Below the pieces are notes generated by a model that worked only from the letters and a program-made list of their open reading frames with translations, had not been told where the DNA came from and did not search any database. The translations under genes were made by a program, and so were the position numbers. A DNA stretch of 64,000 nucleotides from Acidobacteriota bacterium (lineage in GTDB: Bacteria; Acidobacteriota; Aminicenantia; UBA2199): positions 16-64,015 of the forward strand of contig JAHIKI010000063.1 of the NCBI GenBank assembly GCA_018897435.1, in the 5' to 3' direction. Below, piece after piece: positions 3,496 through 14,972 of this stretch; the stretch's first letter is position 1, and each line of letters starts with the position of its first letter.

Positions 3496-5073
3496 ATGAA
3501 AGATTATATTGAAACCGATGTCCTGATCATCGGTAGCGGCATCGCCGGCTCCACGGCGGCTTTGCGACTAGCCGAACAGGGGATCGATGTGCTCTTGGTC
3601 TCCAAGGGCAAGGACTATACCCGGACCAACACCTATTACGCCCAGGGCGGCATCGCGACTTTGCCTGAAGGAGAGAATGCCGATGTTTTTGCCGCTGATA
3701 TCATCAAGGCCGGGGATGAATTCAATTACCGCCCGGCCGTCGACCAAGCGGTCCGGAACGCGCAACACTTGGTGCGGGAAATATTAATCGACAAGCTGCA
3801 GGTGCCTTTTTCAAAAAAGGACGAGCAGTACGACCTGGCCAAGGAAGGAGGTCATTCCTCGCGCCGGGTGCTGAACGTCAGGGACATGACCGGGCGCATT
3901 ATCCAGGATAAATATTACGAATATTTGCAAAAGCTGCCCAAATTGAAAATGCTCTTCAAGCATACGGCTGTCGACCTGCTGAGCTATCCCCACCATTCGC
4001 TTAATCCCATGCGCACCTACGAGGAACCCAAGATCATCGGTGCCTACATACTCGATCAGAAAAGCAAGAAAATATCCCGGGTATTCACCAAAAAAGTGGT
4101 GCTGGCCTCCGGAGGCTTAAGCAGCCTGTATCTGCATTCCACCAATCCCGAAGAGGCCATCGGCAACGGCATCGCCATGGCCTACCGTGCCGGGGCGCGG
4201 CTGGCCAACCTGGAATATGTGCAGTTCCATCCCACGTCGCTCTTCCACCGCGAGGCCGACAGTTTCCTGATCTCGGAGGCGGTGCGCGGCGAAGGGGCGC
4301 GCTTGATGAACCTCAAGGGCGAGTATTTCATGGAAAAATATTCACCGCTTAAGGACTTGGCCCCGCGCGACGAGGTATCGCGGGCCATTTACGAAGAGAT
4401 GATCAAGAACGGCAACGATTACGCCCTGCTCGACCTGGCTTCATTTACCACGATCAACATCCGCGAACGTTTCCCGACCATTTTCCAGACCTGCCTGAAA
4501 TTCGGCATCAACATCGAAGAGAAACCGATCCCGGTGGTGCCTGCCGCCCATTACAGCTGCGGCGGCGTGCTGTGCGACTTGAACGGCCGCAGCAGCATTC
4601 GCAACCTCTACGCCATCGGTGAAGTTTCGGCCACGGGTGTGCACGGGGCCAACCGCCTGGCCTCGGTTTCCCTGCTGGAAGCCCTGGTTTGGGGCGTCAA
4701 GGCGGCCGAGGACATCCTGGCCACGATCGCCGACGACCAGGATCCTTACGTCATTGCCGAGGTCCCGGCCTGGAAGTATCCCTATCCCCAGGAAAAACTT
4801 GACCCGGCCCTGGTCTGGCAGGACCTGGTGACCATCAAGACCATCATGTGGAACTATAACGGCATCATCCGCACCGTCAAGCGCATGGAGCGGGCCAAGG
4901 CCGACCTGGAATACCTCAAGCACCGCATCGAGAAATTCTATCAGCAGAGCGAGATCGGCAACCGCATCATCAACCTGCGCGACAGCGTGCAAGCGGCGCT
5001 GCTCATCGTTGAAGCTGCTTTGCGCAACCGCATCTCGCGCGGTGCCCATTTCATCAAGAGCGACGAAAAATAA
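3496..5073 (+). CDS. nadB: L-aspartate oxidase
   Basis: 525 aa. FAD-binding DVLIIGSGIAGSTAA at the N-terminus. HYSCGGV...GEVSATGVHGANRLASVSLLEALVWG matches the succinate dehydrogenase/aspartate oxidase family. Starts 1 nt after nadC. Confidence 0.92.
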   Translation: MKDYIETDVLIIGSGIAGSTAALRLAEQGIDVLLVSKGKDYTRTNTYYAQGGIATLPEGENADVFAADIIKAGDEFNYRPAVDQAVRNAQHLVREILIDKLQVPFSKKDEQYDLAKEGGHSSRRVLNVRDMTGRIIQDKYYEYLQKLPKLKMLFKHTAVDLLSYPHHSLNPMRTYEEPKIIGAYILDQKSKKISRVFTKKVVLASGGLSSLYLHSTNPEEAIGNGIAMAYRAGARLANLEYVQFHPTSLFHREADSFLISEAVRGEGARLMNLKGEYFMEKYSPLKDLAPRDEVSRAIYEEMIKNGNDYALLDLASFTTINIRERFPTIFQTCLKFGINIEEKPIPVVPAAHYSCGGVLCDLNGRSSIRNLYAIGEVSATGVHGANRLASVSLLEALVWGVKAAEDILATIADDQDPYVIAEVPAWKYPYPQEKLDPALVWQDLVTIKTIMWNYNGIIRTVKRMERAKADLEYLKHRIEKFYQQSEIGNRIINLRDSVQAALLIVEAALRNRISRGAHFIKSDEK

Positions 5074-5116: not shown

Positions 5117-7117
5117 TTATAAATAGCCCAGTGTCTTCATTTCTTCGATCTCGCTGGCCGACAAATTCTTTAATGAGATTTCGGCGGCTTGTCCGCTGCC
5201 GTTGCGGAAGCGGCCGTACCAATCCAGGAAGCGGGCTTTGAAATAGCTGCGTACCTGCGGAAAGTGTTGGCCGACATCCTGCCTCGGGTCGCCCCCAAGC
5301 TGGAACAGTTGCTCTTCATTGTCGCCCAGGTCGATGAGGTAATACCAGTTCTTCCAGCGCATGCCGTATGTAGGGCAGCGGTTGAACGTGCGGGAAACGA
5401 CCATGCGCTCGTCCATCACTTCATTGGCGGCGGCAGCCAGCATGCTCCGGCCGTCCAGCGTCAACTGCTGCCCGAACAGGGAGGCGATGGTCGGAAAAAT
5501 GTCGGCGAGCTCGGTCAAAGGTTGTACCCGGCCCTTGATGTCCAGGCTTTTGGGGTATTTGACGATCAGCGGCACCCGGGTCGTCTCCTCGAACACGTTG
5601 CTGCCATGGCCCAGGACCCTATGTTCGCCCAGGGCTTCCCCATGATCGGACAGGAAGATGATCATGCTTTCGTCGTAGCGCTTTTTTTCCTTGAGCAGCG
5701 ACAGAATCTTGCCGAATTCGCCGTCCACCCAGGCAATGCTGGAGTCATAGGCGTCGGTGATCTCCTGCAGTTCCTCCGCAGTGGGCGGGACCCCGGTATT
5801 CTTATGCTTTCGCACCAGCTGCGCCATGCGTTCCAAGGTGGTTTTCTTTTTTCCCGGCCGGAAGGTAACGGGAAAATCAGCGGGGGGGACCTTGGGAAAG
5901 TGAGGATGGATGTAGTGCATGTAGGAGAACTGGGGGGAAGGGGCTTTTTCCACCCAGTCGCGCAGCTGGGTGTAAATGGACATATCTTTACGTGCCCAGT
6001 ATTTTTCGGGAATGCGGAAATAATCGTCCACTCCCTGCGTGAAGCCGAAATTGGGCGAAATGGCGAACGTGGACGTGATCACGCTGGTCGAGTATCCCTT
6101 GGCGTTGAGGTATTCGGGCAGGGTCAGCAGGTTTTGCGGCAGGAAGGTCTGCAGCAAGCGGACCTTGTGGGTGTCGGGGTAAAGTCCGGTGAATATCGTA
6201 GCCACGCTGGAGCGGGTGAACACGGCATTGGTGTAAGCGTTTTCGTAGACGACGGCGTCGGCGGCGAAAGCGTCGATATGCGGAGATGTATTGCGCTGAT
6301 AGCCGTATGTCCCCAGGTGGGAGGCCTGACAGGCGTCACTGAGAACGATATAGATATTGGGTTTATTTTTGAAGGTGATTTTTGGATTTGACTCTCTGGC
6401 CGGAGTCGCGGCGTAGGTGTAGGCGCTGATGTTGAAGTCGCCTTCACTGCTAGTGATGGTCAGTAGCCCGGGTTGGGCAAACTCGAGCGGCAGTGATATT
6501 TTTCGGGAAAGCCAGCCGCTTTTCACTGTCCTGTTTTTTGCCTTTAGGACATCGATGATGGCCTGCTGCTCTATGATCTCGATCTTGCCCCGGCCGCGGA
6601 GTTCCAGCCGCCCCTGGCCAGGAAGATAGAATAAGCTGAAGCTTTCTCCCGGTTGCAGATGGGGGGCGGCTTTTTTGGTAAACGGTCCGATGACGATGGA
6701 GCGGACACTCAGTTTGTCCTTGTTTTTTTTGCTGAACTGCAGGAAATTCATGCCGCAACTTAGCGGCATCTCGAATTTTTCCCACTTGAAATCCGCCGTC
6801 GGCGACAACATCCTTTTCTTTCTGACGTTCACCGAAAACTCGACCTTTCTTCCGCGAAGGGAATAATTGATCGATATCGGAATCCTTTCCGCTCGACTAC
6901 GCCAGAGGATGAATTGGCATGTATCGCGGTCGGCTACAAAGGCATCCTGGTCGACGCGGAATCCCTCCCACACGTTCATGGTACCGTCGGCCGGACTGAT
7001 CTGGTTCTGGTCCTTGTTCCACATCAGGGTCGGGGGCAGTTCCCGGCTAGGGGATTGGGAACATCCGGGAGACAGTAGCAGGAGGACCAGCAGAAAAAGC
7101 AGGAAATTTTTTTTCAT
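5117..7117 (-). CDS. sulfatase-like hydrolase/transferase lipoprotein with an uncharacterised ~270-aa N-terminal domain
   Basis: ORF 5117..7138. The ATG at 7117 gives MKKNFLLFLLVLLLLSPGC (lipobox). The alkaline-phosphatase-superfamily sulfatase core is IYIVLSDACQASHLGTYGYQRNTSPHID ... FLSDHGEALGEH. No clear C/S-x-P-x-R motif (FTRSS instead). Confidence 0.7.
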   Translation of the reverse strand: MKKNFLLFLLVLLLLSPGCSQSPSRELPPTLMWNKDQNQISPADGTMNVWEGFRVDQDAFVADRDTCQFILWRSRAERIPISINYSLRGRKVEFSVNVRKKRMLSPTADFKWEKFEMPLSCGMNFLQFSKKNKDKLSVRSIVIGPFTKKAAPHLQPGESFSLFYLPGQGRLELRGRGKIEIIEQQAIIDVLKAKNRTVKSGWLSRKISLPLEFAQPGLLTITSSEGDFNISAYTYAATPARESNPKITFKNKPNIYIVLSDACQASHLGTYGYQRNTSPHIDAFAADAVVYENAYTNAVFTRSSVATIFTGLYPDTHKVRLLQTFLPQNLLTLPEYLNAKGYSTSVITSTFAISPNFGFTQGVDDYFRIPEKYWARKDMSIYTQLRDWVEKAPSPQFSYMHYIHPHFPKVPPADFPVTFRPGKKKTTLERMAQLVRKHKNTGVPPTAEELQEITDAYDSSIAWVDGEFGKILSLLKEKKRYDESMIIFLSDHGEALGEHRVLGHGSNVFEETTRVPLIVKYPKSLDIKGRVQPLTELADIFPTIASLFGQQLTLDGRSMLAAAANEVMDERMVVSRTFNRCPTYGMRWKNWYYLIDLGDNEEQLFQLGGDPRQDVGQHFPQVRSYFKARFLDWYGRFRNGSGQAAEISLKNLSASEIEEMKTLGYL

Positions 7118-7121
7118 TGGG

Positions 7122-8915
7122 TTAATCCTCAAGCTCAAGGGCTGCCAGGAATGCCTCCTGGGGAATATCGATCTTGCCGATGCGCTTCATGCGTTTTTTG
7201 CCCTTTTTTTGCTTTTCCAACAGCTTCATCTTGCGGGAGATGTCCCCGCCGTAACACTTGGCCAGGACGTTCTTGCGCATGGCCTTGACCACGGTCTTGG
7301 CGATGACCCGCTTGTTGATCGCCGCCTGGATGACCACCTCGAACATCTGGCGTGGGATGACGGTCTTCATTTTGCTGGTCAGCAGGTTGCCGATGTTGTA
7401 GGCCTTGTCCTTATGGACGATAATGGCCAGGGCGTCGACCGGGTCCTGGTTGATCAGGATTTCCAGCTTGACCAGTGGCGATTCGCGATAATCCTTCAAT
7501 TCATAATCGAACGACGCGTATCCCTGCGAGAGCGATTTCAGCTTGTTGAAAAAATCGTACAGCACGTCGGCCAGGGGCAGGTCGTAGGTCAGGTAGACGC
7601 GGTGCGGTCCGATGTATTCCAGTTTTTTATGAATGCCGCGGCGGTTTTGCAACAATTTCAGGATGTTACCCAGGAATTCGTCTGGGGTGATGACGATGGC
7701 CTCAATATAGGGTTCTTCGATCTTCTTGTAATACTGCGGGTTGGGCAGCTGGGCCGGCGACTCGATCTCATAGGTCTCGTCCTTGTTCGAAGTGACGCGG
7801 TAACGCACCGAGGGGGCGGTGGTGATGATGGAGAGGAAATATTCGCGCTCCAAGCGCTCCTGGACGATCTCCTTGTGCAGCAGGCCCAGGAAACCGCAGC
7901 GGAAGCCGATGCCCAAAGCCGGTGACGTTTCCGGCTCGTAGGTTAGGGAGGAATCGTTCAAGGTGAGCTTTTCAATGGCTTCGCGCAGCTCTTCATGGCT
8001 GGAACCCTCGGAAGGGTAGAAGCCGGCAAACACCATGGGCAGTGGTTCTTTGAAACCCGGTAAGGGAAGCACCGTGGTTTCCTTGGCCAGGGTGACCGTG
8101 TCGCCGATCTTGACTTCCGAGATTTTCTTGATGCTGGCGATGATGTATCCGACCTCGCCGGCTTCCAGAGCCGCCAACGGCGTGGGTTTTGGAGTGTTGA
8201 CTCCCACTTCGTTGATCTCGTATTCGGCATTGTTGGACAAGAACTTGATCTTATCGCCTTTTTTCATGATGCCGTCGATAATCTTGATCAGGATGATCAC
8301 GCCGCGGTAGGAATCGAACCATGAGTCAAATATCATGGCCTGCAAAGGTTTCCGCGCATCTCCGGACGGAGGCGGAATGCGCTCGATGATAGCCGGGATG
8401 ATCTGCTCGATGTTCAATCCCGTCTTGGCAGATACCATCAGCGCTTCTTCGCGTGGGATACCAAGGATGTTTTCCATCTGCTCCAGCGATTTTTCCAGTT
8501 CGTTGTTCGGCAGATCGATCTTGTTCATTATCGGGATCAGGGTCAGGTCGTTCTCCATGGCCAGGTAGGTATTGGCTACGGTCTGGGCTTCCACTCCCTG
8601 CGTGGAATCGATGACCAGCAAGGCTCCCTCGCAGGCGGCCAGGGAGCGTGAAACCTCGTAAGTGAAGTCGATATGTCCGGGAGTATCGATCAGGTTAAGC
8701 AGGTATTTCTCGCCCTGGCTGTCGTGCCAGGTCAGGCGCACGAAGTGCGATTTGATGGTGATGCCGCGTTCGCGTTCCAGGTCCATGGAGTCGAGAACTT
8801 GCTCCTGCATGTCACGCTTGGCTATGGCATGGGTGATCTCTAGCAGGCGATCCGATAAGGTCGTCTTGCCATGATCGATATGGGCGATGATGGAAAAATT
8901 GCGTATATTTTTCAT
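7122..8915 (-). CDS. lepA: translation elongation factor 4
   Basis: [21 protein letters not shown]1 motif and DTPGH. Full-length LepA-like. The ATG at 8915 overlaps the upstream stop (ATGA). Confidence 0.95.
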
Positions 8916-11146: not shown

Positions 11147-11256
11147 CAGTGAATAGTAAATAGTGATTCGTGATTAGAAAAGACAAGGCCAACGAATATT
11201 TCGTTTATTTTCTTAACCAATCACTATTCACCAATCACCAATCACCAATCACTGAG
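11147..11256. repeat. heptamer-array hairpin element, copy A
   Basis: Left arm is GTGAATA GTAAATA GTGATTC GTGATTA (11149-11176). Right arm (11217-11256) is the complement of a GTGATTG x3 / GTGAATA / GTGATTG array. A 39-nt spacer separates them. Lies between divergent tatA and the DUF4234 gene. Confidence 0.8.
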
Positions 11257-11311: not shown

Positions 11312-11680
11312 ATGAGCGAAGTGACCCAGGATGCCCGGCGCATTCCCTATTTCAAGAACGATCCTTTCATCGTTCTGCTTTTGGGTTTTGTCACCTGCGG
11401 CCTATACCTGATCTATTGGAACATCAAGATGGCCGAGGTGGTCAATGCCTTGGTGGAAAAAGAGGTGATCACCCCGCCCGTCGCCATTTTTTCCGGCTGC
11501 TGCTTCCCGGTCAACCTTTATTTTTATTACCTGGTCGGCCAGAATCTGGAGGTGATCGGCCGCAAGGTCGGCAACCCCACGCTGCAGGACCAGTCGGTGC
11601 TGCTGATCGTCCTCGGTTTTTTCGCCCCCATGGTCTCGGCCATGATCGTCCAGGGTGAAATTAACAAACTTTATAGCTGA
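11312..11680 (+). CDS. DUF4234 family membrane protein
   Basis: ATG at 11312 follows AAGGAGG. GLYLIYWNIKMAEVVN is typical of DUF4234 (from memory). Two or three TM segments. Confidence 0.6.
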   Translation: MSEVTQDARRIPYFKNDPFIVLLLGFVTCGLYLIYWNIKMAEVVNALVEKEVITPPVAIFSGCCFPVNLYFYYLVGQNLEVIGRKVGNPTLQDQSVLLIVLGFFAPMVSAMIVQGEINKLYS

Positions 11681-12149
11681 GAGCCGGCACAGCTTTTACT
11701 GGCCGCGGCTGCTGGCCCTGGCCCTGCTGGCCGGGGTGCTGCTACTGCCCCTGCTGGCCTTCGATTGGGTGACTGAGCCTGGTTCCCAAGTCCTGTGTCC
11801 GCTGCGGGCCGTGACCGCCATTCCCTGCCCTTCCTGCGGCCTGACCCGCGCCTTGGCCCACCTGGAGCGCGGCCATTGGGCCGAGGCCGTACGATTCCAT
11901 CCCTTCGCGCCTTTGGTTTTTTTGCTGGTTCTGGCTTTGGTCATCATGCTGGTTTTCGAGCTGGCCACCGGCAGAACCATTATCGGCAACCCCCTGAAGA
12001 AGCGGCGCGACGTTTTCCTGGTTTTCGCCGGCTTGGTCGTTTTCCAGGTGGTGCGCACGGTCATTTTCTTCCTCGACGGCGGCTGGGACGTGTTCCGGCA
12101 CGAGAACCTTTTTGCCCGTTTGCTGGCATTGGCAAATTCTGTTTTTTAA
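11655..12149 (+). CDS. DUF2752 family membrane protein
   Basis: CPLRAVTAIPCPSCGLTRA zinc-ribbon-like motif followed by TM helices. GTG start overlaps the previous gene. Confidence 0.6.
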   Translation: MKLTNFIAESRHSFYWPRLLALALLAGVLLLPLLAFDWVTEPGSQVLCPLRAVTAIPCPSCGLTRALAHLERGHWAEAVRFHPFAPLVFLLVLALVIMLVFELATGRTIIGNPLKKRRDVFLVFAGLVVFQVVRTVIFFLDGGWDVFRHENLFARLLALANSVF

Positions 12150-12197
12150 TAAATATTGCTAAATTTCTTAAAATATGTTATTTTCTTGAATAGGAAA

Positions 12198-13301
12198 ATG
12201 AAACAATACAGGAAAATGCCAACCCAGAAAGAAATGCTCGACCAGTTGCGGCGAGGTTTGGTTGTTTTGACTCCGCTATCTTTTCGATTTTTGGAAGAAA
12301 CCTCATCTGTGAGCGGGAACCGGCATTTTGATGCACTGATAGAGGTGTGTTGGAATCAGAATATGGCAAAATTCGCTGTCGAATGCAAAGCCTTGTCGAC
12401 GCCCAAGGCATTTTGGGACGGGATCAACCTGCTGAAATCACAATCAATTCCAAAAGGCTGCTATACGATGCTTTTCCGGCCATTCTTCAGTGAACGACAA
12501 TTACAGGATCTGGAACAGGAAAGGATTAGCGGAATTGACCTGTGCGGCAATGGTGTGGTGATAATTCCCGGGAAATATGCCGTCTTCCGCAGCGGTGGCA
12601 GGAATAAATTTTCCACCTCGGCACCGATAAAGAACATCTACCGGAAAAATAGTTCAATGGTGAGCAGGGTCTTTTGTCTCCGCTCCAGCTATGCCACTGT
12701 TCAAGAAATTTACCTGGAGATCAACCGGCGCAACCTTCTGGTGAACCGTTGGAATAAGAAACCCATAAGCCTCTCTACTGTATCGAAGGCATTGAAGACA
12801 CTGGAAGAGGATTTGATTGTGGCGCGAAAAGAGATCATCCGCTTGCTGCAGCCCGATAAGCTGTTGGAAAAACTTAGTCAATACTATGATCCTCCGGCTG
12901 TTAAGAAGAAGGTCCGTCTCAAGGTTTCAGTGGATGGTAAAGCACTCCGCGAATTGCTGATGAAGCTGGCGGACACGATGGATCTGCCCATTATTGCTAC
13001 TGGTATATCATCGGTTAATCAATATGCCGTAATGCAGCGGGAAGATATTTTATCTATCTATTGCCCGCGATTGGAAATGTTGTTAAAGCAGCTTCCCGGA
13101 AATGAAACGGATCGATTTCCAAATCTCGAACTACTCGAGACAGAGGATGAAGTGCTCTATTTTGATGCCAGGCAGGAGGGCGATTTCTGCTGGGCTTCCC
13201 CGCTGCAGGTTTATCTGGAACTGATGGCTGGGGACAAGCGAGACCAGGAAACTGCAGGTCAAGTACTTTTACTGCTTCTAAAGGAACTTGAGCAGGTATA
13301 A
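12198..13301 (+). CDS. PD-(D/E)xK-like nuclease / winged-helix / AbiEi-like C-terminal domain protein (putative antitoxin-regulator)
   Basis: ORF 12156..13301, with ATG at 12198. FDALIEV...FAVECKAL fits D...E-x-K. ISLSTVSKALKTLEEDLIV looks like a wHTH. The C-terminus LYFDARQEGDFCWASPLQVYLELMAG resembles the AbiEi C-terminal domain. Ends 2 nt before the NTase gene. Confidence 0.45.
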   Translation: MKQYRKMPTQKEMLDQLRRGLVVLTPLSFRFLEETSSVSGNRHFDALIEVCWNQNMAKFAVECKALSTPKAFWDGINLLKSQSIPKGCYTMLFRPFFSERQLQDLEQERISGIDLCGNGVVIIPGKYAVFRSGGRNKFSTSAPIKNIYRKNSSMVSRVFCLRSSYATVQEIYLEINRRNLLVNRWNKKPISLSTVSKALKTLEEDLIVARKEIIRLLQPDKLLEKLSQYYDPPAVKKKVRLKVSVDGKALRELLMKLADTMDLPIIATGISSVNQYAVMQREDILSIYCPRLEMLLKQLPGNETDRFPNLELLETEDEVLYFDARQEGDFCWASPLQVYLELMAGDKRDQETAGQVLLLLLKELEQV

Positions 13302-13303
13302 AC

Positions 13304-14197
13304 ATGATTATGATTACCCAACTGCAAACGGCGTTGCTCGACTTGCTCTACAGCGTGCAAGACACGGATATCAAGTTCATCATCGGCGGTGGCTTCGGCA
13401 TCTATCTTAAAACTGAGCTTGTACGTCAAAGGGGATTGCGGACCCTCTTTCAGGAATGGCCAAAAGTGCGTTCCACCAACGATCTTGACTTGTTTCTGCG
13501 ACCTGAGCTTCTCATTGACTCGGTTAAATTGAAACCGTTGTCGGAAGCAATATTCAGATTGGGTTATCGGGTTATTCCCGGTGCAGAGAAATACCAATTT
13601 GTAAAACCCGGGCCGGGTGGCGCAGATGCGGGCAGCATCAAGATCGATATCCTCACCGGGCCACAGAGCCACTTTGCAGGCACAAGGGTTAAAGTGGACG
13701 CCCGCCGGGCCCGACCCAATCCTTCCGTTGGCATGCACGCTCATCCAGTGAACGAAGCCTCAACACTGGAGAAAGGGTTGTTGCCGGAAACGGTGGCGGG
13801 CAATCTCAGTTCGGGCGAGGCATGGCAGGCAGAAGTTTTTCTGCCGCATCCATACACGTTATCAATGATGAAGCTCTTCGCTTTCAAAGACCGGTTGAAC
13901 GATACCAATAAGGAATTCGGCCGTTACCACGCCCTGGATATATATACTATACTGGCGACGACCACAGAAGCGGAGTGGGGACATGCCCTCGAGATGCGTG
14001 ACCAACATAGGAATGAGCCGTCTGTTATTGAGGCGGGTGACCTGGTCGCGAAATATTTTTCCTCCCTTGAATGTTTGGGCATGATCCGGCTGCGGGAAAG
14101 TCGATACTATCGGCCGGAATTACAGCTTATTGATTTTATATCTGCCCTGCAGGAGCTGTTTCCCGCTGGGGCAAAAACCACTGCGCAGGAAAAATGA
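13304..14197 (+). CDS. nucleotidyltransferase, AbiEii/DUF1814-like (putative toxin)
   Basis: 297 aa. Pol-beta NTase signature IIGGGFGIYL...STNDLDLFL (G-G/S ... D-x-D). Tightly coupled to the upstream gene. Confidence 0.5.
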   Translation: MIMITQLQTALLDLLYSVQDTDIKFIIGGGFGIYLKTELVRQRGLRTLFQEWPKVRSTNDLDLFLRPELLIDSVKLKPLSEAIFRLGYRVIPGAEKYQFVKPGPGGADAGSIKIDILTGPQSHFAGTRVKVDARRARPNPSVGMHAHPVNEASTLEKGLLPETVAGNLSSGEAWQAEVFLPHPYTLSMMKLFAFKDRLNDTNKEFGRYHALDIYTILATTTEAEWGHALEMRDQHRNEPSVIEAGDLVAKYFSSLECLGMIRLRESRYYRPELQLIDFISALQELFPAGAKTTAQEK

Positions 14198-14314
14198 TCT
14201 AACCCGTTATTCCGCGCTTTGATCAATTTTTTATTCAACGGCGGCTGGACCATTTTCTGGCACGAGTATCTTTTCGCCCGCCTACTGGCACTGGTCAAAA
14301 TGGTTTTTAATTGA
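14198..14314 (+). pseudogene. relic copy of the DUF2752 gene 3' end
   Basis: The in-frame translation SNPLFRALINFLFNGGWTIFWHEYLFARLLALVKMVFN* aligns with the C-terminus of the 11655..12149 product (VRTVIFFLDGGWDVFRHENLFARLLALANSVF*). Confidence 0.75.
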
Positions 14315-14369
14315 CTTTTGCTTTTTTTTGGAGTATCTATATTTTTTATAATACCCACAGGAGGAAAAG

Positions 14370-14972
14370 ATGAATTTGGTTGAAAGAGCGAAAAACATTC
14401 TGCTGACGCCGGCCAAGGAATGGGAAGTGATCAAAGGCGAGAACCTGACCATTGCCGATATGTTCACCAAGTATGCCATGATCCTGGCCGCCATCCCGGC
14501 TGTTGCCGGTTTTATCGGTTATGTAGTGATCGGTGTTTCCTTCGGTTTCGGCACTTTCCGCATGCCCTTCAGCACAGCCCTGATCTGGGCCATTCTGACT
14601 TACATCCTTTCGCTGGGTGGAATCTTCCTGCTGGCTTTCATCATCGACACCCTGGCGCCCACGTTCGGCTGCACCAAGGACTTGACCGCCGCGGTCAAGA
14701 TCGTGGTCTTCTCTTATACCGCGGCCTGGGTGGCGGGCATTTTGAACATTATCCCCGCCCTGGCCATACTGGTCAGCCTGGCCAGCATTTATTCGCTGTA
14801 CCTTATGTACATGGGTATGCAGAAGATCAAGGATGTCCCCAAGGACAAAATGATGGGATACTTCGTGGTGACCATCATTGCCGCCATTGTGGTGTTCTTT
14901 ATCATCGGTTTTCTCGTGAGCCGCGTGGCTTTCGGCAGCATGGCCGGCCTGGCGGGGTTGAGCGTTTTTTAA
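14370..14972 (+). CDS. Yip1-family integral membrane protein
   Basis: 200 aa. N-terminus ILLTPAKEWEVIKGE followed by 5 TM helices, as in the Yip1/DUF1282 family. GGAGGA SD 6 nt upstream. Confidence 0.6.
   Translation: MNLVERAKNILLTPAKEWEVIKGENLTIADMFTKYAMILAAIPAVAGFIGYVVIGVSFGFGTFRMPFSTALIWAILTYILSLGGIFLLAFIIDTLAPTFGCTKDLTAAVKIVVFSYTAAWVAGILNIIPALAILVSLASIYSLYLMYMGMQKIKDVPKDKMMGYFVVTIIAAIVVFFIIGFLVSRVAFGSMAGLAGLSVF

Follow-up and report, generated by a model that had tools for sequence, protein, structure and literature searches.

How can a two-gene cassette that encodes no enzyme for its own movement come to lie in the end of a chromosomal gene and leave that gene intact? The question is raised by a locus in a 64,000-nucleotide stretch of an Acidobacteriota genome (contig JAHIKI010000063.1, positions 16 to 64,015; the whole stretch is called the window below). 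A host gene for a DUF2752 protein, preceded by a DUF4234 gene, is followed there by two co-oriented genes, A (a putative regulator or antitoxin) and B (a putative nucleotidyltransferase toxin), by a second, diverged copy of the DUF2752 gene end, and by a Yip1-domain gene (Table 1). Comparison of occupied and empty alleles showed, at the level of sequence, a reciprocal crossover inside the last codons of the DUF2752 gene, a replacement end for that gene carried by the element, and no recombinase on board; a survey of related loci showed a family-wide association of the A-B pair with repeats that resemble attachment (att) sites at classical integrase targets. A preliminary description of the window had proposed that an AbiE-like module was inserted into the 3′ end of a host gene and supplied a replacement gene end, and that interpretation was supported, with qualifications, the insertion itself by five empty alleles, a foreign gene tail and a mosaic allele.

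The last ~30 codons of the DUF2752 gene recur 3′ of gene B. A repeat search returned the two copies as an ungapped direct repeat of 72% identity, and local alignment of the two gene ends gave 69 of 91 positions identical (~76%; longest identical run 11 nt) with a score of 67. For the null distribution, the upstream flank of one locus was aligned with the downstream flank of another among 66–74 related loci; these pairs had a mean score of 21–22 and a 99th percentile of 28, and 0.3% of them reached at least 50. The diverged reappearance of the gene end had been read correctly in the preliminary description, but the second copy had been placed at 14198–14314, and the similarity begins only at ~14207–14223, with 14198–14206 belonging to the conserved cassette. 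No third copy was found by blastn within the window. The repeat starts are 2,162 bp apart, and exactly two genes, A and B, fill the unit; GC content is 0.43–0.49 over most of the cassette and 0.59–0.64 in the DUF2752 gene, in agreement with the earlier remark on two tightly linked, AT-richer genes, and the translations given at that time matched the list of open reading frames (ORFs). Also as described, no integrase or transposase ORF fits within the 2,162 bp, and the repeat search found no terminal inverted repeat at the cassette ends.

Table 1. Features of the locus and of the related loci discussed in the text. Positions are those of the window unless a locus is named; L numbers denote loci of the comparison.
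Feature	Position	Strand	Remarks
Host DUF2752 gene, integration target	11655–12149	+	Pfam PF10825, E 1.4e-16; orthologues keep this gene order in loci that carry the cassette and in loci that lack it
Upstream copy of the duplicated gene end, attL-like hybrid	12061–12160		Native 5′ part, element-derived 3′ part
Crossover interval, upstream copy	12113–12119		Counterpart 14275–14281 in the downstream copy; informative-site test against L089
Whole integrative cassette	12120–14281		2.16 kb
Replacement gene tail from the element (..LLALANSVF, stop)	12120–12149	+	~10 codons; unlike the tail of every empty allele
Cassette left end, conserved putative promoter/operator	12150–12197	+	Consensus of 70 loci
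−35-like TTGCTA	12156–12161		17-nt spacer to the −10-like element
Half-site AATTTCTT	12162–12169
−10-like TATTTT	12179–12184
Half-site ATTTTCTT	12180–12187
Half-site AGGAAAAT	12192–12199
Gene A, putative regulator/antitoxin	12198–13301	+	367 aa
Gene B, putative nucleotidyltransferase toxin	13304–14197	+	297 aa; starts 2 nt past the A stop
Right end of the conserved cassette (..TGATCTAACCCG)	14198–14206	+	blastn to L087 and L007
Element-borne 5′ part of the gene-end mimic (..FRALINFLFNGGWTIFWHEYLFAR)	14207–14281	+	In frame with the native tail
Downstream copy of the duplicated gene end, attR-like hybrid	14223–14322		From ~14282, displaced native tail (..LALVKMVFN) and native intergenic sequence
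Stop codon of the displaced native tail	14312–14314
Host Yip1-domain gene	14370–14972	+	Pfam PF04893, E 2e-19
L078 pair of A-B type	L078:2326–4301
L078 DUF6088/AbiEi_4 + AbiEii pair	L078:4773–6390
L078 205-aa protein + AbiEii pair	L078:7161–8590
L078 transporter 3′ end, three copies	L078:2010–2240, 4443–4673, 6747–6794
Repeat-rich example	L048:1–284 and 3984–4282
Repeat-rich example	L061:3436–3573 and 8371–8508

Metagenome contigs were scanned with the DUF2752 protein, which gave seven loci (L087–L093). Five of these (L088, L089, L090, L091 and L093) carry the empty site that the preliminary description had suggested looking for, with the DUF2752 gene followed ~60 nt later by the Yip1 gene and no A-B pair between them; the upstream order of methyltransferase, TatA and DUF4234 genes is retained in L088–L091, and L093 is too short upstream to judge. 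L087 is an occupied relative, and L092 has neither the A-B pair nor a Yip1 match. The nucleotide identity of the left flank to the window is 95.3% in occupied L087 and 94.7% in empty L089, and 90.0%, 84.5%, 82.1% and 77.8% in the remaining empty alleles. Over the cassette (12150–14206, blastn), L087 is 95.0% and L007, from a Thermodesulfovibrionales metagenome-assembled genome (MAG), 92.6% identical to the window. Since cassette and flank identities are about equal in L087, the cassette has co-diverged with its host there, and on these identities its presence or absence varies among lineages that are ~5% apart.

The tails of the alleles tell which of the two gene ends is native. Every empty allele has a tail of the downstream-copy type (..GGyCAAAAyGGTTTTTrATTGAC), which runs on into the Yip1 upstream region, and the tail type at 12120–12149 was found only in occupied relatives, being common, with variation, to L007 and L087. 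Thus the tail that now ends the DUF2752 gene is the foreign one. At the sites informative for L089, 12 of 13 before 12113 match the upstream copy and 13 of 14 after 12119 match the downstream copy (Fisher p ~1e-5). The position of the switch corresponds in the two gene-end copies, which is the pattern expected of a single reciprocal crossover with a circular element. The stretch at 14207–14281 and the host gene have different bases at most informative sites, and at those sites L089 agrees with the upstream copy. Between this mimic and the upstream copy, dN/dS (the ratio of nonsynonymous to synonymous substitution rates) was ~0.23 over 22 alignable codons, a small sample, and so low a value fits derivation of the mimic from a functional DUF2752 orthologue.

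The circular form implied by these observations would have one continuous ~105–115-nt mimic of the DUF2752 3′ end, 14207–14281 joined to 12120–12149, with the junction order B stop, TCTAACCCG, mimic, promoter. On the sequence comparisons, one reciprocal crossover between the mimic and the chromosomal gene near 12113–12119 inserted the element, left the DUF2752 gene intact with foreign last ~10 codons, and moved the native tail to a position just past B.

The occupied relatives differ beyond the conserved right end at 14206, where L001/L087 and L007 diverge from the window. In L001 (6895–7037; L087:7544–7667) the sequence from 9 nt past the B stop is unrelated to the window or to L007, and the 18-kb contigs, from two independent assemblies, end 124–143 nt past the B stop; a longer form of the element may continue past this point, or the assembly may have broken at a repeat. 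L007 has ~190 extra nt between B and its gene-end remnant (L007:2208–2400), and its downstream genes differ, with no Yip1 gene and with a second DUF2752 paralogue, 34% identical, 2 kb away (4031–4498). The downstream gene-end remnants of the window and L007 are ~21% apart, as estimated by eye. In the DUF4234 gene of L001, L002 and L087 (L001:3962–4374) the window protein matches in two overlapping tblastn segments and separate ORFs were called, which suggests a frameshift or a different gene structure. Upstream of the DUF4234 gene, the TatA-DUF4234 intergenic region of the window (11149–11245) holds an inverted repeat with 36-nt arms (11149–11184 and 11203–11238, 72% complementary) and a tandem ACCAATCAC motif (11216–11245), which together may be a regulatory site.

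Flanking repeats were then surveyed across the family in 66 non-redundant loci, with score cutoffs, for 1-kb flanks, of at least 50 for direct and at least 35 for inverted repeats. In 1-kb flanks a direct repeat brackets the pair in 14 of the 66 loci and an inverted repeat in none (null 0.3%); in 6-kb flanks the counts are 24 direct and 3 inverted. The repeat-bounded units measure 2.16–9.6 kb, that of the window being the smallest, and the repeats are pieces of local host DNA that differ in sequence from locus to locus (25–405 nt, often 91–100% identical). Several are gene 3′ ends: the 3′ part of tRNA-Ser(gct) in L013 (3228–7137, 79 of 81 identical) and L046 (4068–7130, 106 of 106), the 3′ end of tmRNA in L032 (1–2459, 25 of 25, Rfam RF00023) and L020 (2548–7284, 347 of 350), and protein-gene ends in L078 (ABC transporter) and L003 (AAA_18 gene). 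L013 is a complete 3.8-kb island consisting of tRNA-Ser, a tyrosine integrase, A-B and a tRNA-Ser 3′ copy; L046, which uses the same tRNA target, has no integrase and no remnant of that of L013. A tyrosine integrase also adjoins B in L004–6 and L064. Overall, integrase-like ORFs lie near the pair in ~8 of ~70 loci, and most repeat-bounded units have none. Clustering of all neighbouring ORFs gave no shared accessory mobility gene, no family occurring in more than four loci, and the neighbours of similar size (445–447 aa) proved unrelated (a type I restriction-modification fusion, a DUF4143 ATPase and others). In L008 (830–1467) the upstream copy of a 189-nt flanking repeat (1279–1467) overlaps the 3′ end of a 156-aa ORF by ~20 nt and extends beyond it; this ORF resembles phage integrases over their N-terminal SAM-like domain only, and the cassette may have landed in, or beside, a truncated integrase gene.

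Two loci contain tandem arrangements. In L078 (478–8590) three different AbiE-type pairs stand in tandem behind one ABC-transporter gene, with the A-B pair between gene-end copies 1 and 2 and the canonical AbiEi_4/AbiEii pair between copies 2 and 3; ahead of copy 2 lie a remnant of the A promoter and start (4333–4381) and an internal ABC fragment (4407–4453). The same transporter site is empty in L110 and L111, and a mosaic test against these alleles, which are only 87–91% identical, gave no clear crossover. In L003 (1710–7033) the 3′ end of an AAA_18-type gene occurs three times (1710–1843, 4764–4830 and 6900–7033), with a corrinoid-type set (B12-binding, URO-D and a 234-aa ORF) between copies 1 and 2 and A-B between copies 2 and 3, so that the same kind of array also takes non-defence cargo. 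Both arrays look like accretion at one att site. A cassette sub-lineage (L018, L039, L048 and L061) lies in repeat-rich regions, in which sequences of 50–300 nt recur between cassettes and across genomes, reminiscent of cassette arrays. For the window element itself an integron gene cassette was considered and rejected: no GTTRRRY core was seen by eye at the cassette boundaries (14198–14330 and 12100–12200; no formal attC model was run), and the repeat is a coding gene end and not an attC hairpin.

The left end of the cassette was defined from the sequence upstream of A in 70 loci, with the consensus aaAta...cTTGc..atTTTCCTaAAat..gcTATTTTCtTgatcAgGAAAATG; in the window this conserved block begins at the DUF2752 stop codon. 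It contains promoter-like elements, which a generic sigma-70 scan did not flag (score 8/12), and a conserved palindrome, ATTTTCyT-N4-AGGAAAAT, plus a third half-site. The palindrome is formed by the half-sites ATTTTCTT and AGGAAAAT and lies over the ribosome-binding site and ATG of gene A, and by analogy with AbiEi (PMC3985639) we infer that the motif is an autoregulatory operator. A similarity between the A start and the B end (AGGAAAA) was considered as a recombination site and is better explained as a pglZ ribosome-binding site kept from a bacteriophage exclusion (BREX) context.

Gene A starts at ATG 12198, as backed by homologues, and not at TTG 12156. Its product has an N-terminal domain (~1–160), to which profile searches assigned no domain, a putative winged helix-turn-helix (wHTH; ~187–223) and a putative C-terminal AbiEi_2-like domain (215–356). 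PF09952 (AbiEi_2) was matched by the window protein below the 21-bit cutoff (E 0.011, 16.5 bits) and by 27 of 34 homologues (best 2.6e-5). HTH_Crp_2 matched the window protein weakly at 191–223 (E 0.021) and 29 of 34 homologues (best 4e-4), and a MarR-like match lies at 187–216. With hhalign, the A family profile aligned over the full length (residues 7–359) with a 404-aa protein of L053 (98.2%, E 4.8e-14) that itself passes PF09952 at 35.2 bits, and one A homologue is named an AbiEi family antitoxin by NCBI. The AlphaFold 2 model of A (pLDDT, predicted local distance difference test, 47) was of too low quality to bear out the wHTH or to serve in a structure search. A possible PD-(D/E)xK nuclease motif in the N terminus (D45...E62-x-K64), invariant in close homologues, was set aside; over the wider set fewer than 90% of sequences keep E62 and K64, and the AbiEi_2 paralogue has another residue in place of K. 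We regard A as a probable regulator of wHTH plus AbiEi_2 type, a putative autorepressor and antitoxin.

B has more than 1,100 clustered homologues, nearly all annotated as hypothetical and lacking a Pfam domain, and 746 among 50%-identity representatives. The AlphaFold 2 model, built with 36 homologues, was of good quality (pLDDT 84.5, predicted TM-score 0.86), and its top Foldseek matches in the PDB are ANT(2'')-Ia and M. tuberculosis MenT3/TglT (E 1e-4 to 2e-3; for MenT3, E 3e-4 to 2e-3, probability up to 1.0, TM 0.29–0.41). On this model, B is predicted to fold like the Pol-beta nucleotidyltransferases and to stand far from every member of known structure. Residues G29, G30, T58, D60, D62, K190, H209, D212 and G259 are invariant in 74 diverse homologues. 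The motifs described for DUF1814 proteins are hG[GS], DhD, KLxAaxxR and +DxxD (PMC3985639). In B, motifs I and II are G29-G30 and T58-x-D60-x-D62, with a spacing of ~29 residues compared with ~15 (PMC3985639); motif III is K190-L-F-A-F-K-D-R197, in which L191 and A193 are nearly invariant; and at the position of motif IV stands R207-Y-H209-A-L-D212, with His in place of the first Asp. In MenT1 and MenT3 the phosphoacceptor (T39 and S78) lies two residues before the catalytic Asp (PMC11375011), the position that T58 holds relative to D60 in B, and R207/H209 of B is resembled by R205/H207 of MenT3 (PMC11375011). Among the 74 homologues (30–59% identical), 31 match PF08843 (best 2.6e-8), 18 NTP_transf_8, 9 the PADLOC AbiEii model and 2 Aminoglyc_resit. 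B itself is filed as a putative AbiEii/MenT-like enzyme, on sequence motifs and a predicted fold, and not as a demonstrated PF08843 member.

A and B are strictly syntenic in ~78 genome loci and adjacent wherever the upstream sequence is long enough to tell, the genes mostly overlapping by 4 nt, compared with the 2-nt gap of the window. Protein identity is typically 60–76% across more than ten phyla; hosts include Nitrospirota, Desulfobacterota, Chloroflexi, Actinomycetota, Spirochaetota, Nitrospinota, Zixibacteria, Planctomycetota and Acidobacteriota, among others, and the closest relative is in a Thermodesulfovibrionales MAG (Nitrospirota, 92%). In two planctomycete loci (L075:4895–11523 and L076:1646–8265) A-B lies directly upstream of pglZ-brxL (BREX); in nine other loci only a 5′ pglZ fragment is present, 3–12 nt past the B stop, and the last codons of B overlap the pglZ ribosome-binding site, which suggests that the pair was mobilized out of a BREX operon. 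Elsewhere the nearest neighbours are heterogeneous (135 Pfam families among 119 ORFs), with canonical AbiE pairs, Fic and DUF4143 ATPases as well as housekeeping genes among them. Searches of IMG/VR viral contigs, PLSDB plasmids and GenBank phages gave no relative of B, and no vector was identified; identical-protein look-ups (P0045 and P0006) returned the same context from many samples and no new insertion sites. In L070 (NZ_CP187419.1, 4671534–4684394) the pair occurs in the complete genome of a cultured planctomycete, Anatilimnocola sp. NA78.

What enzyme made the crossover has to be weighed. We lean, with modest confidence, towards a tyrosine recombinase that acted in trans or has since been lost, by which the window element would be a satellite of integrase-plus-AbiE islands such as L013, similar to a cis-mobilizable element (CIME). 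This is favoured because the tRNA-Ser, tmRNA and protein-gene 3′ ends that serve as repeats are classical integrase targets, because integrase-bearing versions of the same cassette exist (L013, L004–6, L064), and because the window copies, ~76% identical with identical runs of at most 11 nt, are a poor RecA substrate. Several points weigh against it. There is no integrase within the window element, and a small hidden Markov model and tblastn, of limited sensitivity, found no tyrosine recombinase in the 64-kb window; many repeats elsewhere are long (160–400 nt, 91–99% identical) and also fit homologous recombination; the cassette borders are tight, the promoter abutting the stop codon and the repeat starting ~10–25 nt past the B stop, which is not easily obtained from random deletion of an integrase; and L089 could itself have arisen by excision, so that the switch mapped here would mark the excision and not the integration crossover, although the assignment of native and foreign tails holds even then. 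The main rival, unlikely as we see it, is a Campbell insertion: the cassette with a captured gene 3′ end circularizes via flanking repeats or by aberrant excision and enters an orthologous gene by a RecA-dependent single crossover, after which the toxin-antitoxin pair selects against loss of the insert. It agrees with repeats that are locus-specific pieces of local genes, 25–405 nt long and often 91–100% identical, with the scarcity of integrases in the repeat-bounded units, with a mimic that resembles, in frame and with a dN/dS of 0.23, the orthologous DUF2752 end of a related lineage, and with the non-defence cargo of L003; moreover, as the remnants of the window and L007 have drifted by ~21%, identity at insertion was higher than the 76% of today. 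It is countered by the tRNA-Ser and tmRNA 3′-end targets with perfect short repeats, which are a hallmark of tyrosine-integrase att sites, by the integrase-bearing version at the same tRNA target (L013), by the 25-nt perfect repeat of L032, marginal for RecA, and by the lack of an identical run above 11 nt in the window copies, and it leaves the first capture of a new host segment unexplained. A bolder reading, which we consider quite unlikely, makes AbiE-class cassettes self-sufficient, recombinase-free mobile elements that capture a neighbour's 3′ end, leave as a small circle and re-enter by a single crossover; the ~160-aa N-terminal domain of A or the nucleotidyltransferase might aid the process and addiction might lock in the duplication. 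It draws on the three AbiE-type pairs of L078, with gene-end copies after the first two, and on the roughly one third of loci that are repeat-bounded and lack an integrase. Two further explanations were considered. That tandem DUF2752 genes once existed, with the pair between them or replacing most of the second, and that the downstream copy is a decayed end, is very improbable: L007 does have a second full-length paralogue ~2 kb downstream (34% identity), and the downstream copy in L078 is preceded by a non-contiguous internal ABC fragment, as if duplicated segments were once longer, but in each of the five empty-site relatives a lone DUF2752 gene precedes Yip1 by ~60 nt, the downstream tail and what follows it are what these relatives have as their native gene end and intergenic region, the tail of the current gene is the foreign one, and two tandem DUF2752 copies without the pair, which the preliminary description had named as pointing to such decay, were found in no related contig. 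A transposition event whose long target-site duplication has since diverged is hardly credible. Direct repeats do flank an insert that has no integrase, but the insert lacks both a transposase and terminal inverted repeats, repeat length ranges from 25 to more than 300 nt between loci, and the upstream tail differs from every native tail. The window copies (~100 nt) also differ by 24–28%, compared with ~5% divergence of host and cassette since insertion, so they were already different when joined, which excludes a target-site duplication.

The cargo, too, can be read in more than one way. From its sequence we infer a divergent AbiE-class toxin-antitoxin or abortive-infection pair, as the preliminary description had it; the motifs, the MenT3-like fold, the PF08843 and PADLOC matches of homologues and the comparison of A with AbiEi_2 uphold this. 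On a profile match to AbiEii/DUF1814, by which that description would have let the assignment stand or fall, it fails if taken literally: window B matched no Pfam family at E ≤ 0.1, PF08843 included, and no PADLOC AbiEii model. Other results count against an AbiE-class cargo as well. Neither window A nor B gave anything significant by sequence in Pfam, PADLOC, NCBIfam or the PDB, and PDB profile searches with the A and B family alignments gave nothing significant either; TM values are low (0.29–0.59) with an aminoglycoside nucleotidyltransferase as top match; and with hhalign the B family profile aligned with two canonical AbiEii proteins over motif II only (probability <2%), so that the case for direct homology to PF08843 members is a weaker, transitive one. 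The pair could instead be an ordinary island pair of a regulator and a nucleotidyltransferase with another role, for example nucleotidylation of a small molecule or antibiotic in the manner of ANT(2'')-Ia. That enzyme is the best Foldseek match (E 9.8e-5, TM 0.54–0.59 on the target), Aminoglyc_resit and NTP_transf_8 matches occur in 2 and 18 of the 74 homologues, and the window proteins lack a direct AbiE profile match. We nevertheless think this improbable, given that B is always paired with an AbiEi_2-type regulator, the two genes mostly overlapping by 4 nt, that its KLxAaxxR and T-x-D-x-D motifs are typical of DUF1814/MenT toxins (PMC3985639, PMC11375011), and that the pair occurs within BREX operons and next to canonical AbiE pairs, Fic and further genes of defence type.

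If the cargo is of the AbiE class, B would arrest growth by nucleotidylating tRNA acceptor ends or by binding GTP, by analogy with MenT and AbiEii, A would act as repressor of the operon by way of the conserved palindrome that covers its own ribosome-binding site, and A would neutralize B, perhaps by causing B to phosphorylate itself at the invariant T58, two residues ahead of the catalytic D60. Under either the integrase or the RecA model, such an addictive pair would hold the repeat-flanked insert against deletion, and selection against repeat-mediated loss may be why minimal units persist.

The class of insertion mechanism is a familiar one; the matched occupied and empty alleles, a family invisible to annotation and the integrase-less repeat-bounded units are worth following up. 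The locus offers a base-pair-resolved example, with alleles from related natural populations, of how a minimal cassette without mobility genes enters a chromosome and leaves the target gene undamaged. The A-B family is widespread in uncultured anaerobes and so far unannotated, and as its members are individually missed by Pfam, NCBIfam and PADLOC, censuses of defence systems in sediment and groundwater undercount it. It provides a test bed for how defence islands with 'no identifiable mode of mobilisation' (PMC10121019) move and for whether antitoxin-induced auto-phosphorylation extends to the AbiEi_2/COG4849-like branch, and since the carrier Anatilimnocola sp. NA78 is cultured and its genome complete, experiments are feasible.

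Among known systems, AbiE of Streptococcus agalactiae and Lactococcus is a bicistronic, autoregulated regulator-nucleotidyltransferase operon (Dy et al. 2014, PMC3985639). The A-B pair has the same order of overlapping or abutting genes behind its own predicted promoter with a 17-nt spacer, a regulator with a putative wHTH and a putative C-terminal AbiEi-type domain (both matches being weak in window A), the hG[GS], DhD and KLxAaxxR motifs plus a fourth in the toxin, and an upstream palindrome consistent with autorepression. It differs in that the window proteins fall under the Pfam, PADLOC and NCBIfam thresholds, in the extra N-terminal ~160 aa of the 367-aa A, and in B motifs I and II standing ~29 and not ~15 residues apart and motif IV reading R-x-H-x-x-D in place of +DxxD. 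Judged by the motif description of Dy et al., the cargo probably fits the COG4861-COG4849-type branch noted there.

MenAT3 of M. tuberculosis (Rv1044/Rv1045, TglT; PMC7450476, PMC7205606, PMC11375011) is among the closest solved folds (7c46, 6j7r, 6y5u). Equivalent residues of MenT3 and B are S78/T58, placed two positions ahead of the catalytic Asp, K189/K190, and R205-x-H207/R207-x-H209, and the MenAT3 antitoxin is AbiEi-like; sequence identity is 11–12% and TM ~0.3–0.4, the antitoxin of the A-B pair is larger and of AbiEi_2 type, and tRNA modification and phosphorylation by the A-B pair are presumed by analogy. As to accessory modules of BREX and defence islands, the position upstream of pglZ-brxL in L075 and L076 is the same, and in the window no BREX genes stand beside the pair.

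The insertion itself has its closest parallels among elements that use gene ends, tRNA-targeting islands included. Phage 21 and e14 integrate in the 3′ end of icd in E. coli, bring a substitute end and encode their own integrase. The window element, with 2.16 kb and no recombinase, differs from them in equipment and is like them in having a crossover in the last codons, a diverged functional end supplied by the element and a remnant of the native end on the far side. CIMEs, known from the ICESt1/CIME family, are integrase-less att-flanked islands formed by accretion with integrative elements. The window element, whose mobilization is presumed, is much smaller, and the same cargo sits at many unrelated att sites across phyla; what it has in common with CIMEs are att-like direct repeats of the target 3′ end, the lack of recombination genes, family members in tandem arrays (L078, L003), and integrase-bearing relatives at the same kind of target (L013 and L046).

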